48,131 bases of DNA, taken from contig CAJABS010000116.1 of the NCBI GenBank assembly GCA_903938075.1, forward strand, positions 1 to 48,131. The letters run 5' to 3'. A program made the translations under genes and the position numbers. This DNA comes from an uncultured Chloroflexota bacterium. Lineage in GTDB: Bacteria; Chloroflexota; Limnocylindria; Limnocylindrales; Limnocylindraceae. Under the pieces are notes generated by a model. It saw only the letters and a list, made by a program, of their open reading frames with translations. It did not search any database and was not told the DNA's origin. This document shows positions 8,520 to 13,637 of the stretch, one piece after another. How positions within the stretch are numbered: the first letter of the stretch is position 1; the number at the start of each line of letters is the position of its first letter.

Positions 8520-8987
8520 ATGCCACACAACACTGAACGACTCGGGGACCTGCTCGACTCACTGCTCCCCGTTCTGGTGGAGCGACTGCATGAGACCGGG
8601 CTCGGCGAGATTGAGATTGAGCGCGACGGCGCAATCGTGCGCGTGCGCGCCGAAGATCGTGGCGCGCCCATTGCCTCCACACCTGCGCCAGCCGCCCCGC
8701 GCGGGGGAACGCCTGCCGCTGCTGCGGCACCGAGTGTTGCCGATGATCGCCGCCACCCCGTGCGCTCGACCGCCGTTGGCTTTGTGAAGCTCGCCCCTGA
8801 CATTCACGTTGGCGGCAAGGTCGCCAAGGGCTCACTGGTTGCGACCGTTGATGTGCTCGGTGTTGCCGTTGAGGTGCGCGCCGACCATGGCGGCATCGTC
8901 GCCAAGCTGCGTTGCGCTACTGGCGATCCAGTGGAGTACGGCCAGGAGCTCTTCTTGGTCGAATCCGTTGGCGAGGTGAAGGCGTGA
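8520..8987 (+). CDS. BCCP-like protein lacking the biotinylatable lysine
   Basis: 155 aa and collinear with AccB: N-domain LVERLHETGLGEIEIERDGAIVRVR, a Pro/Ala linker, and a lipoyl/biotinyl-type fold VRSTAVGFVKL..GSLVATVDVLGVAVEVRADHGGIV. The E-A-M-K-M motif is replaced by D-V-L-G-V. The stop overlaps the accC GTG. Confidence 0.8.
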   Translation: MPHNTERLGDLLDSLLPVLVERLHETGLGEIEIERDGAIVRVRAEDRGAPIASTPAPAAPRGGTPAAAAAPSVADDRRHPVRSTAVGFVKLAPDIHVGGKVAKGSLVATVDVLGVAVEVRADHGGIVAKLRCATGDPVEYGQELFLVESVGEVKA

Positions 8988-10360
8988 TCAAGCGCGTGTT
9001 GATTGCCAACCGTGGCGAAATTGCGCTGCGAATCTTGCGCGCCTGCCGCCAGCTCGGCATCGAGGCGGTGGTCGCCTATAGCGAGGCCGACCGCGAGTCG
9101 CGCGCCGTGCTGGTTGCCGACGAGGCGATCTGCATCGGCCCGGCCGACGCCAAGCGAAGCTACCTCTCGGCCCCCGCGGTGATCTCGGCGGCACTCGCCA
9201 CCGGCTGCGATGCCATTCACCCGGGGTACGGCTTCCTCTCCGAGAACGCCGCCTTCGCCGAGGCGGCCGCAGCACACGGCATCACCTTTATTGGCCCCTC
9301 GGCCGAGGTGCTCGAGCGCTTTGAGAGCAAGGCGGCGGTACGCGCCCTGCTGGCCAAGCACGGCCTCCCCACGATTCCTGGCTCTGACGGCGTGGTCGCC
9401 GACGAGGCTGCAGCAGCAAAGGCTGCAGAGAAGATTGGCTACCCAGTCATCTTGAAGGCGTCGGCAGGCGGCGGTGGTCGCGGCATGCGCGTGATCCAAA
9501 GTGCCGACGATCTGACGCAGCTCTTCTCACTCTGCACCCAAGAGGCGCAGGCGGCGTTCGGTGACGGCTCCCTCTACATCGAGAAGTACCTGATTGATAC
9601 GCACCATGTAGAGGTGCAGATCGCCGTTGACAAGAGCGGCACTGCGCTGCACTTCGGTGAGCGCGACTGCTCTGTGCAACGACGACATCAGAAGCTCGTC
9701 GAAGAGTCGCCTTCAACGGCACTCACCCCAAAGGTGCGCGAAGAGTTCTTGGTACGCGCCGCGAAGGCGATCGGCGCTGCGGGGTATCGCAACCTTGGCA
9801 CGCTCGAGTTCTTGGTCGGCCCCGACGGGAAGCCGTACTTCATCGAAATTAACTGCCGCATTCAGGTCGAGCATCCGGTCACCGAGATGGTGACGGGCGT
9901 CGATTTGGTCGCGCTGCAGATTCGCCTCGCCGCTGGCGAGCTGATGCCAATGACGCAGGCCGAGGTGGAGCGCCGCGGTCACGCGATCGAGTTCCGCCTC
10001 ACCGCCGAAGATCCGGCAATGGAGTTCCGCCCGCAGGCGGGTGAGATCACCACCTTCCGCTCACCGAGCGGCCCATGGGTGCGTTTCGATTCGCATCTCT
10101 ACGCCGGCTACGAGGTGCCGCCGTATTACGACAGCCTGCTCGCCAAGTTGATCGTGTGGGGGAACACGCGCGAAGAGGCGATCGCACGATCGCGCGCGGC
10201 GCTCCTTGAAGTAGAGATCGATGGCGTGGCTACCACGCGCGACTTCTTCCTTGGCCGCCTTGAGACGCCATCGTTCTTGAACGGCACCGCCACCACCGGC
10301 ATGCTCGACGCAATCGGCACCGCCGACATCTTGGCCGCCGCGCCAAAGGCCCGCGCATGA
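8984..10360 (+). CDS. accC: Biotin carboxylase
   Basis: GTG at 8984 (GTGA overlap) gives VIKRVLIANRGEIALRILRACRQLGIE. ATP-grasp motif GGGGRGMRV, and EINCRIQVEHPVTE. The track ORF start at 8912 is an upstream extension. Confidence 0.93.
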   Translation: MIKRVLIANRGEIALRILRACRQLGIEAVVAYSEADRESRAVLVADEAICIGPADAKRSYLSAPAVISAALATGCDAIHPGYGFLSENAAFAEAAAAHGITFIGPSAEVLERFESKAAVRALLAKHGLPTIPGSDGVVADEAAAAKAAEKIGYPVILKASAGGGGRGMRVIQSADDLTQLFSLCTQEAQAAFGDGSLYIEKYLIDTHHVEVQIAVDKSGTALHFGERDCSVQRRHQKLVEESPSTALTPKVREEFLVRAAKAIGAAGYRNLGTLEFLVGPDGKPYFIEINCRIQVEHPVTEMVTGVDLVALQIRLAAGELMPMTQAEVERRGHAIEFRLTAEDPAMEFRPQAGEITTFRSPSGPWVRFDSHLYAGYEVPPYYDSLLAKLIVWGNTREEAIARSRAALLEVEIDGVATTRDFFLGRLETPSFLNGTATTGMLDAIGTADILAAAPKARA

Positions 10361-11596: not shown

Positions 11597-12867
11597 ACAA
11601 CGAGCAGCGCGTCGTCGTAACGGGGATGGGGGCGGTCTCACCGCTCGGCCGTGGCGTTGCCGCGCTTTGGGACGGCCTTCTCGCCGGACGCTCCGGCGTT
11701 CGCGCGTTGCAGGGCCTCGACCTCACCGGCCAAGAGGTCGACTTCGGCGGGCAGGCGATCGACTTCGATCCTTCTGATGTGCTCGAGCCGAAGCAGATCA
11801 AGCGCCTCGATCGCTTCACGCACTTCGCCATCGCCGCTGCCGCTGAGGCACTCGCCTCCGCCGGGTTGCCACCACGATTTGAAGCGGGCGAATCATCCGA
11901 AGGGGTCGCCACAATCATCGGCTCTGGGCTTGGTGGCGCGACTACCTTGTTTGAACAGGCCGCCGTCTTCGCCGAGCGCGGCGCCGGTCGCATCTCGCCC
12001 TTCTTGGTTCCCGCCGCCATTGGCAACATGGCCTCGGGCGAAGTGGCGATTCACGTTGGCGCACAGGGCCCGTCGTTCGGCGCGGTGAGCGCCTGCGCCA
12101 CCGCCGGTCACGCGATTGGTGAGGCGTACGAGATGATTCGCCGCGGCGACGCGACTATCGCACTCGCCGGCGGCACCGAGGCGGCGCTCCACCCAGTGGT
12201 GATCGCGGGATTCAACAACATGCGTGCCCTCTCGCGCAGCGGTGCATCGTCCACCGGTGGCAATCCTGCCGCCGCATCACGACCGTTCGATAGCGGTCGC
12301 GATGGATTCGTGATGGCCGAAGGAGCTGGCATCCTGCTGTTGGAGCGACTCGATGTGGCACTCGCCCGCGGCGCAACGCCGCTCGCTGAGCTGGTGGGCT
12401 ACGGCGCCACCGCCGACGCGTTGCACATCACCCTGCCAGCACCTGGCGGCTCAGGTGCCGTTCGCGCCGCGCGCCGCGCACTCGCCAAGGCGGGTCGCAC
12501 CGGTGCAGAGATCGATCATGTCAATGCGCATGCCACCTCAACGCCCGAGGGCGATAAGGCAGAGCTCGAAGCGATTCGCACGATCCTCGGCGAGGGATCC
12601 CGCGCGAGTGTCACCGCCACGAAGGGCGCTATCGGCCACACCCTTGGCGCCGCGGGCGGACTCGGTTCCATCGCCACAATCTGCGCCATGCGCGATGGAC
12701 GTGTGCATCCAACGTTGAATCTCACCGCACCAGATCCAGCCTCCGTTGGCCTGAACATCGTCACCGGCGCACCAGCTGCGCAGCAGGTGAACCTGGCACT
12801 GGTGAATGCCTTCGGCTTCGGCGGGCAGAACTCGGCCCTCCTCTTTGCGAAGTGGGAGGGGAAGTAA
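11593..12867 (+). CDS. fabF: Beta-ketoacyl-ACP synthase II
   Basis: 424 aa. VVVTGMGAVSPLG, active-site ACATAGHAIG, HATSTPEGD, GHTLGAAG. Confidence 0.92.
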   Translation: MNNEQRVVVTGMGAVSPLGRGVAALWDGLLAGRSGVRALQGLDLTGQEVDFGGQAIDFDPSDVLEPKQIKRLDRFTHFAIAAAAEALASAGLPPRFEAGESSEGVATIIGSGLGGATTLFEQAAVFAERGAGRISPFLVPAAIGNMASGEVAIHVGAQGPSFGAVSACATAGHAIGEAYEMIRRGDATIALAGGTEAALHPVVIAGFNNMRALSRSGASSTGGNPAAASRPFDSGRDGFVMAEGAGILLLERLDVALARGATPLAELVGYGATADALHITLPAPGGSGAVRAARRALAKAGRTGAEIDHVNAHATSTPEGDKAELEAIRTILGEGSRASVTATKGAIGHTLGAAGGLGSIATICAMRDGRVHPTLNLTAPDPASVGLNIVTGAPAAQQVNLALVNAFGFGGQNSALLFAKWEGK

Positions 12868-13637
12868 TGGCCGAGAAGCGTCGCGTTCGACTGCAGAAGA
12901 GCGCTCGCCGCGCACTCGAGGCGGCACGCGATGCGGCGCGACGCGCGCGCGGTGACGCACCAGAAGTTGTGCCATCGAGCGACGTAACGACACCGTCGAC
13001 GCCAGCCATTGAGCGACTCGCGCCGCGAAATCCATCGCGCCTCATTGAGAGCGCACTGCCAGCGGCGGCCTCTGCAGCGCAGAGCACCCCACCACGACCG
13101 CGGAAGGGGGAGAGCCGCAGCGGCGCGCGACTCCCAGCAAACCTGCCACTCACGACCGACGACGCCGCCTTGATTGAGATCATTGACCGCCTCGCCGTTG
13201 TTGCCGACGGGAGCGGCCTTGCCGAGGTTGAACTCTCGTCTGGTGGCACGCGCGTGGTGGTGCGCAGCCGCAGTGCCGTACAGGGGAGCCACGTGGTGGT
13301 GACTGGCGCCGCCGTACCGCCAACCACTGCAAGCGCCGCGCCGGTGCCACTCCCAACAGGGGCAAAGCCAGCGCCAGCCAGCGCAACCGCACCAGCTGGA
13401 CCCGTGGTGAGCGCGCCGCTTACCGGCATCTTCTACGCCGCCCCATCACCAGGTGCACCCGCATTCATCTCGGTCGGATCGATCGTGGCGGTCGGTCAGC
13501 CGATCGGTCTCATTGAGGCGATGAAGCTCTTCAACGAGATCAAGAGCGATAAGGCGGGTCGCGTGGTGCGCATCATTGCGCAGGATGGCCTCTTGGTGAA
13601 GGCGAAGTCGCCGATCATTGAGGTGGAGCCAGCATGA
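12867..13637 (+). CDS. accB: Biotin carboxyl carrier protein with a roughly 100-aa basic N-terminal extension
   Basis: ATG at 12867 overlaps the fabF TAA and follows GGGAGGGG. Canonical IGLIEAMKLFNEIKSD biotinylation motif. A BCCP N-domain (IEIIDRLAVVADGSGLAEVELSSGG) is preceded by an Arg-rich region. Confidence 0.88.
   Translation: MAEKRRVRLQKSARRALEAARDAARRARGDAPEVVPSSDVTTPSTPAIERLAPRNPSRLIESALPAAASAAQSTPPRPRKGESRSGARLPANLPLTTDDAALIEIIDRLAVVADGSGLAEVELSSGGTRVVVRSRSAVQGSHVVVTGAAVPPTTASAAPVPLPTGAKPAPASATAPAGPVVSAPLTGIFYAAPSPGAPAFISVGSIVAVGQPIGLIEAMKLFNEIKSDKAGRVVRIIAQDGLLVKAKSPIIEVEPA

Follow-up and report, generated by a model that had tools for sequence, protein, structure and literature searches.

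The acetyl-CoA carboxylase (ACC) genes on contig CAJABS010000116.1 of an uncultured Chloroflexota bacterium (class Limnocylindria, family Limnocylindraceae; assembly GCA_903938075.1) raise the question of what a BCCP (biotin carboxyl carrier protein) that has lost its biotinylated lysine is doing in the operon of the enzyme whose carrier it resembles. The window analysed here is the whole stretch of 48,131 nucleotides. It encodes a lysine-less, thumb-less BCCP paralog of 155 amino acids (here called X; 8520..8987, + strand) immediately upstream of the biotin carboxylase gene accC, and a canonical BCCP of 256 amino acids (12867..13637, + strand) further along the same operon. No BCCP-like open reading frames (ORFs) beyond these two were found when E. 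coli BCCP was searched with phmmer against the six-frame ORFs of the 48 kb. A first-pass annotation of the sequence had drawn attention to the pair and had compared X to the BADC proteins of plants. It is proposed here that X may be a stoichiometric subunit of ACC without catalytic function, by which assembly of the enzyme and hence its activity are controlled, a reading to which a rough probability of 0.55 is given.

Comparisons with family models support the claim that X is collinear with BCCP. Residues 21-148 of the protein match positions 11-155 of the BCCP equivalog model TIGR00531, a full-length collinear match scoring 46.5 bits against a cutoff of 115.2 (the canonical BCCP of the window likewise falls below this cutoff, at 102.7 bits), and the match to Pfam Biotin_lipoyl (PF00364; E 7.6e-8) exceeds the gathering score. 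None of the NCBIfam models reached its own cutoff for X. Weak matches to E2 lipoyl models were also below cutoff, and the hairpin column of the lipoylatable lysine is occupied by glycine. Three agreeing alignments (MAFFT with E. coli BCCP and the second copy, a 153-sequence MAFFT alignment, and phmmer against PDB 4HR7_B) place Gly114 of X (codon GGT, 8859-8861, + strand) in the column of the biotinyl-lysine of E. coli, Lys122. The hairpin motif EAMKM is replaced by D111-V-L-G-V115 (8850..8864, + strand; codons GAT GTG CTC GGT GTT), so the absence of a lysine reported in the first-pass annotation holds on proper alignment. In addition, six residues are deleted at the thumb relative to positions 94-101 of the E. 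coli protein, and this deletion is common to the X family. X therefore keeps the three-part architecture of BCCP and has lost the two elements concerned with biotin chemistry, namely the lysine of the AMK motif (now LG) and the thumb.

The predicted structure of X agrees with this assignment. An AlphaFold2 (AF2) model built with a 39-sequence family alignment has a mean predicted local confidence score (pLDDT) of 85, rising to 96-98 in the biotinyl-like beta-sandwich domain without thumb (residues 78-148; 8751..8963, + strand), where Leu113-Gly114 lie at the hairpin tip. The best PDB match in Foldseek was 1BDO, the biotinyl domain of E. coli BCCP (TM-score 0.81, root-mean-square deviation 1.3 Å), with similar fits for 9A87 (Arabidopsis BCCP1) and 4HR7 (the complex of biotin carboxylase, BC, with BCCP). 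The N-terminal part, residues 3-43 (...TGLGEIEIERDGAIVRVR; 8526..8648, + strand), is a helix followed by a beta-hairpin, modelled as a helix at 3-26 and strands at 30-35 and 38-43 with pLDDT of about 90. It aligns to residues 1-34 of E. coli BCCP and to the canonical BCCP of the window, and its glutamates E30 and E32 are invariant in the X family. As judged from these alignments, this segment corresponds to the oligomerisation and BC-associated N-terminal domain of BCCP. The two domains are joined by an Ala/Pro-rich linker (residues 44-77; 8649..8750, + strand) with pLDDT of about 53 and no predicted secondary structure, and the length of this linker differs between orthologs.

The distribution of lysine-less copies, proposed for examination in the first-pass annotation, was followed at several depths. 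The 120 closest database relatives of X share 83-97% identity with it; they derive from a large number of freshwater metagenomes, and one of them bears the name Candidatus Aquidulcis. A motif search matched [DE]VLGV in 116 of these 120. An exhaustive search with X of 1.84 billion representatives gave 1776 matches, and among the best 150 of these 1776 the lysine column holds glycine in 80, in the motif (D/E)-(V/M/L)-L-G-(V/I). A scan of GTDB species genomes, seeded with the HVDVLGVRQ subgroup so that the X family was sampled unevenly and the genus of the window itself was not among the returns, yielded 53 loci, nearly all labelled Candidatus Limnocylindria, Limnocylindrales or generic Chloroflexota. 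All 51 recoverable X orthologs from these species-level genomes of Limnocylindria carry [DE][VM]LG[VI], and EAMKL is present in the true BCCP of every locus where that part was recovered (41/41). Recurrence of the same gene, motif and place in 51 loci and 120 relatives is far beyond chance. Biotinylation of X at another lysine was considered and is ruled out by orthologs without any, as the C-terminal domain is entirely lysine-free in 21 of the 51.

The first-pass annotation had named decay as an alternative, and X does show features of a functionless accB remnant: neither the catalytic lysine nor the thumb is left, and its TIGR00531 score is below the cutoff. The ratio of nonsynonymous to synonymous substitution rates (dN/dS), computed against a relative that is ~90% identical (locus L081), is nevertheless 0.081 for X, compared with 0.082 for the true BCCP, 0.044 for accC, 0.032 for accDA and 0.094 for birA. 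This value indicates strong purifying selection and, with class-wide conservation, rules out a strain-specific decaying pseudogene. The ORF is intact, the AF2 fold is confident, and the motif is invariant in 51 species-level genomes although identity in the C-terminal domain is only about 38-56% (mean pairwise identity 56%, minimum 38%), with Leu113 and Gly114 near-invariant and among the most conserved positions of the family. The probability that X is a remnant is accordingly close to nil. As the motif persists at such low domain identity, the conservation of X reflects selection for a lysine-less hairpin and not decay.

The position of the gene bears on the partner of the protein. X starts 3 nt past the stop of the fused accD-accA gene, and its own stop (8985-8987) overlaps the GTG start of accC (8984) in a GTGA junction, which agrees with the reported overlap with accC. 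The gene shares its operon with those of all ACC subunits and of the biotin protein ligase BirA. The gene order conserved in the class is birA-accD/A-X-(fabD)-accC-fabZ-(metallophosphoesterase)-fabF-BCCP-fabH-fabG. The placement of X in the slot directly upstream of accC is correct for the window; it does not hold as a rule for the class, because in subclade 2 (L029, L031, L034-L052) fabD stands between X and accC and overlaps the stop of X. Coupling is therefore upstream to accD/A and downstream to either accC or fabD. As accD/A adjoins X constantly in the 51 loci, the invariant neighbour of X is accD/A, not accC.

Coupling to fabD in subclade 2 is one of the observations that could speak for a role outside ACC catalysis, in which X would be an adaptor for FabD, BirA or an unrelated partner and its barrel-sandwich a generic interaction module. 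Lysine-less biotinyl-like proteins do occur in settings unrelated to ACC (the protein P0264 beside pxpBCA, and the product encoded between efp and xseA in L080, both described below), and X has a weak similarity to the barrel-sandwich model HlyD_D23 (E 0.043; limited to 37 residues, with 13.5 bits where the cutoff is 30). However, the 155-amino-acid X is without the flanking alpha-hairpin and beta-barrel domains of membrane-fusion proteins, it is collinear with BCCP over its full length including the BCCP-specific N-terminal motif, its best sequence and structure matches are BCCPs of ACC, and its adjacency to accD/A is constant in the 51 loci. A function outside ACC is for these reasons considered distinctly unlikely.

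A mechanism for X as a non-catalytic subunit can be outlined from what is described for the E. coli enzyme. In the E. coli ACC filament, a BCCP domain occupies a non-catalytic site touching BC and the N-terminal zinc domain of AccD, and the N-terminal 30 residues of BCCP were modelled as an alpha/beta/beta motif by which BCCPs oligomerise and are tethered (PMC11160672). By its N-terminal motif, X would form mixed oligomers with the true BCCP and also associate with AccC. The beta-sandwich of X could then take the place that E. coli BCCP has at the non-catalytic docking site, on BC and the zinc-ribbon of AccD, and the true BCCP, which is biotinylated and encoded next to fabF, would be left to perform the swinging-arm chemistry. 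Two paralogs would in this manner divide the structural and catalytic tasks of BCCP between them, with X setting the assembly state of ACC and hence its activity.

The conserved N-terminal motif also admits a different proposal, that X autoregulates expression of the operon and so keeps the accBC-repressing function attributed to the AccB N-terminal domain in E. coli; the N-terminus of E. coli AccB has been discussed as an expression regulator (PMC11160672). X is acidic (isoelectric point, pI, 5.5) and no nucleic-acid-binding feature was found in it. Furthermore, conservation is strongest in the C-terminal domain and hairpin, which would be superfluous for a regulator acting by its N-terminal domain. 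Autoregulation is hence regarded as very improbable.

In Arabidopsis, the BADC proteins (BADC1-3, also called BCCP-like) are encoded by At3g56130, At1g52670 and At3g15690. They have been described as BCCP-like proteins that are not biotinylated, bind both BC and BCCP, and are "unique to the plant htACCase" (PMC11926652). Like X, they are BCCP paralogs without the biotinyl-lysine that exist alongside a true BCCP in a heteromeric ACCase. A survey of Brassica, which includes one 78-aa BADC domain sequence, reported the BADC-type motif CYIEQLGGQFPIE in comparison with CIIEAMKLMNEIE of BCCP (PMC9578262). The corresponding hairpin of X is ATVDVLGVAVEVR, so that Met-Lys has become Leu-Gly in both: EAMKL is EQLGG in BADC and DVLGV in X. 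The analogy to BADC drawn in the first-pass annotation is strengthened by this shared change (EAMK to EQLG in BADC); it does not extend to orthology. The C-terminal domain of the Brassica BADC, for which the single 78-aa sequence was used, gave pairwise scores of 122 with plant BCCP, 100 with E. coli BCCP and 58-75 with X of Limnocylindria. Since the BADC domain is closer to plant BCCP than to X, the resemblance appears to be convergent and the origins independent, and X is best described from these comparisons as an analog of BADC and not as a member of that family. BADC also differs in keeping a long insert at the position of the thumb, where X has a deletion, and in being encoded by separately regulated nuclear genes, whereas the gene of X is part of an operon and is translationally coupled.

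The BADC of plants, which bears this LG motif too, has been reported to sequester BC and inhibit ACCase (PMC12706156; PMC13585458), and X has the architecture of a BCCP minus the lysine. It could accordingly be argued that X is purely a competitive decoy that binds BC instead of holo-BCCP and lowers malonyl-CoA synthesis, with no part in assembly. Such a decoy would be hard-wired into the operon of the very enzyme it is meant to inhibit and translationally coupled to it, giving fixed co-expression with no evident conditional control. No regulatory signal was seen between X and its neighbours in a promoter and terminator scan of positions 4000-17500, which gave fewer sites than were found in shuffled sequences and carries no weight. 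Work in plants also backs an assembly role, BADC being viewed as a "glue" (PMC11926652), and a BADC-like protein of Chlamydomonas is stoichiometric with the carboxyltransferase (CT) (PMC13585458). A pure decoy is on balance thought rather unlikely. The tight coupling to accD/A and accC speaks no less strongly for a stoichiometric subunit than for an inhibitor under conditional control, and because this translational coupling is fixed, a stoichiometric scaffold is tentatively favoured for X, with inhibition by competition for BC as a less likely outcome.

Two groups of proteins help to delimit X further. It shares with bacterial AccB (TIGR00531; E. coli P0ABD8; structures 1BDO and 4HR7) the order of domains, the N-terminal motif, the Ala/Pro linker, the beta-sandwich, the C-terminal signature VEYGQ and the slot upstream of accC, and differs from it in lacking the hairpin lysine and the thumb and in being accompanied by a separate canonical BCCP in the same operon. 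The epsilon subunits of actinobacterial acyl-CoA carboxylases (such as AccE/PccE) are comparable as small non-catalytic promoters of holoenzyme assembly between BC and CT, although their sequence and fold are unrelated to BCCP. These subunits have been named as a precedent for BADC (PMC11926652).

A number of results weigh against the proposed role of X as a dedicated assembly subunit of ACC. X evolves faster than the true BCCP, for which mean pairwise identity in the C-terminal domain is 67%. Owing to the insertion of fabD in subclade 2, gene order does not point specifically to BC. As to the origin of X, the phylogeny of the short C-terminal domain supports no placement: the Gly-type proteins group together in an unmasked neighbour-joining tree, but with hairpin and thumb columns excluded (61 columns, 60 bootstraps) the only supported clade is that of the true Limnocylindria BCCPs, at 100%, and monophyly of X, a grouping of X with the Armatimonadota-type proteins described next, and a sister relation of X to the local BCCP each receive 0%.

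The Armatimonadota-type proteins (L058, L071, P0158, P0254, P0278-P0289; motif ALGIAN(E/D)(I/V)) are a second lysine-less family in an ACC setting. Like X, they are BCCP-like, have Leu-Gly for Met-Lys and a shortened thumb, and occupy the accB slot before accC-nusB; they nevertheless form a sequence family of their own, whose C-domain is about 33-42% identical to that of X. All six loci examined show the same triad of the lysine-less gene, a gene for a protein of 122-132 amino acids, and accC-nusB (L058 9845-10660; L071 9818-10683; L084 8001-8776; L086 7929-8719; L087 10001-10797; L088 10001-10779). The stop of the lysine-less gene overlaps the start of the second gene. The product of the latter has no Pfam match, and in L058 and L071 it is predicted to have a single transmembrane segment and a Cys/His-rich C-terminus (CPxGG..YDPTTG..C.H.GHE). 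No BCCP of the lysine type was found within 10 kb of the Armatimonadota-type gene at the six loci. A homolog search with the Armatimonadota-type protein returned metagenomic sequences only, with no cultured host.

Further lysine-less relatives were seen elsewhere. In L085 (3093-8396), the Gly-type biotinyl-like protein P0264 (RAMGL) ends a cluster of pxpB, pxpC and pxpA (5-oxoprolinase), DUF969, DUF979 and pyroglutamyl peptidase, and its place beside pxpBCA is a non-ACC setting for a lysine-less carrier-like protein. In a metagenome-assembled genome (MAG) of Dictyobacter (Ktedonobacteria; L080, 3643-6039), a BCCP-like gene between efp and xseA encodes Asn in place of the lysine (IQSLNVINEV), and an Arg variant (VEVLRMPH) precedes xseA in another Chloroflexota MAG (L060, about 9700-11480).

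The canonical BCCP of the window lies 3.9 kb downstream between fabF and fabH, as stated in the first-pass annotation. Its ATG start at 12867 overlaps the fabF stop as TAATG and is preceded by GGGAGGGG. It matches TIGR00531 and PF00364, retains the thumb and carries the biotinyl-lysine Lys220 in EAMKL (codon AAG, 13524..13526, + strand). Its description as "displaced" is an assumption, because the true BCCP is found between fabF and fabH throughout the class and a linkage of fabF to accB is also present in Lachnospiraceae loci of the same scan. An unusual and highly conserved C-terminus, LVKAKQPLIEVEP, was observed in the true BCCPs of Limnocylindria (L001-L053), whereas most BCCPs, and X, have VEYGQ; in this segment X is closer to the typical BCCP than the functional copy is.

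The extra Arg-rich N-terminal region attributed to this BCCP consists of ~95 residues (residues 1-95; 12867..13151, + strand) and is strongly basic, with 16 Arg within the first 100 amino acids and a pI of 11.5. It is conserved in L081 with a dN/dS of 0.077, from which it follows that the extension is coding. Residues 2-29 are predicted to be helical (pLDDT 77-87) in a single-sequence AF2 model that is otherwise poor (mean pLDDT 43). The extension has no Pfam match and no homolog of it was found in other Limnocylindria, where the gap between the fabF stop and the N-terminal domain of BCCP is 0-216 nt. The existence of the region thus stands for this lineage and not for the class, and the extension is a separate, lineage-specific feature.

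The surrounding region of the window is one tightly packed string of genes on the + strand. The gene of a group-I biotin protein ligase, birA (5688..6506, + strand; ~272 aa; Pfam BPL_LplA_LipB), lies within the acc gene string directly upstream of accD-accA, in keeping with the reported proximity of birA to X. The accD-accA fusion (6537..8516, + strand; 659 aa) unites the beta and alpha subunits of CT behind an N-terminal Zn ribbon, with matches to Pfam Zn_ribbon_ACC, Carboxyl_trans and ACCA, to TIGR00515 (accD) at residues 17-278 and to accA models at 352-617. Fusion into a single ORF is seen in the window and also in L006 and L023, whereas accD and accA of most other Limnocylindria loci are two overlapping-frame ORFs, that is, separate genes. 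Downstream of X are accC (8984..10360, + strand; 458 aa; NF006367, 628 bits), fabZ (10357..10833, + strand; Pfam FabA) and a calcineurin-like metallophosphoesterase gene (10847..11596, + strand; Pfam Metallophos_2), which is found between fabZ and fabF in Limnocylindria subclade 1 only and is absent from subclade 2. They are followed by fabF (11593..12867, + strand) and, beyond the true BCCP, by fabH (13634..14815, + strand) and fabG (14858..15607, + strand), identified by Pfam matches in the syntenic locus L081 (ketoacyl-synt, ACP_syn_III and adh_short, respectively).

In the 5' region of birA (5625-5870), the biotin-binding loop GRGRRGR is encoded upstream of TTG 5868, which is the first canonical start, by an in-frame segment without any ATG, GTG or TTG. 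A CTG at 5688, conserved in L081 at this place (3861-4115), lies 8 nt after a GGAG that overlaps the stop of an aspartate-kinase gene. CTG 5688 is probably the start of the 272-aa BirA, for which gene callers give a shortened product of 211-212 aa.

ACC catalyses the committed step of fatty-acid synthesis and is a target of antibiotics and herbicides as well as a lever for metabolic engineering. Full-text literature searches turned up neither an account of a lysine-less BCCP or BADC-like protein from bacteria nor any treatment of ACC in Limnocylindria. Non-biotinylatable paralogs of BCCP are known in plants and algae, and the comparisons made here indicate that one is also present class-wide in a group of bacteria, with an apparently independent origin. 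Annotation pipelines call X either the biotin carboxyl carrier protein of acetyl-CoA carboxylase (JGI) or hypothetical (NCBI), and metabolic reconstructions of the abundant freshwater and soil Chloroflexota of this group can as a result choose the wrong gene as AccB. The plant literature is split on whether BADC is an inhibitor of ACCase or an assembly glue (PMC11926652; PMC12706156), and a bacterial analog that is small and operon-encoded, without transit peptides or isoform redundancy, would be a simpler system for this dispute. Recurrence of the change from Met-Lys to Leu-Gly in three lineages suggests that the tip of the hairpin has to meet a specific structural demand. It is tentatively suggested, as a possibility less probable than its contrary, that the ACCs of at least two phyla (Limnocylindria and the Armatimonadota-type) may require a dedicated paralog of BCCP that has no lysine and acts in anchoring or regulation, having evolved independently of BADC and converged on the same hairpin. 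If this is true, multi-subunit ACCs would have as a general design principle, and not as a peculiarity of plants, that the work is divided between an "anchor" and a "swinging" BCCP.

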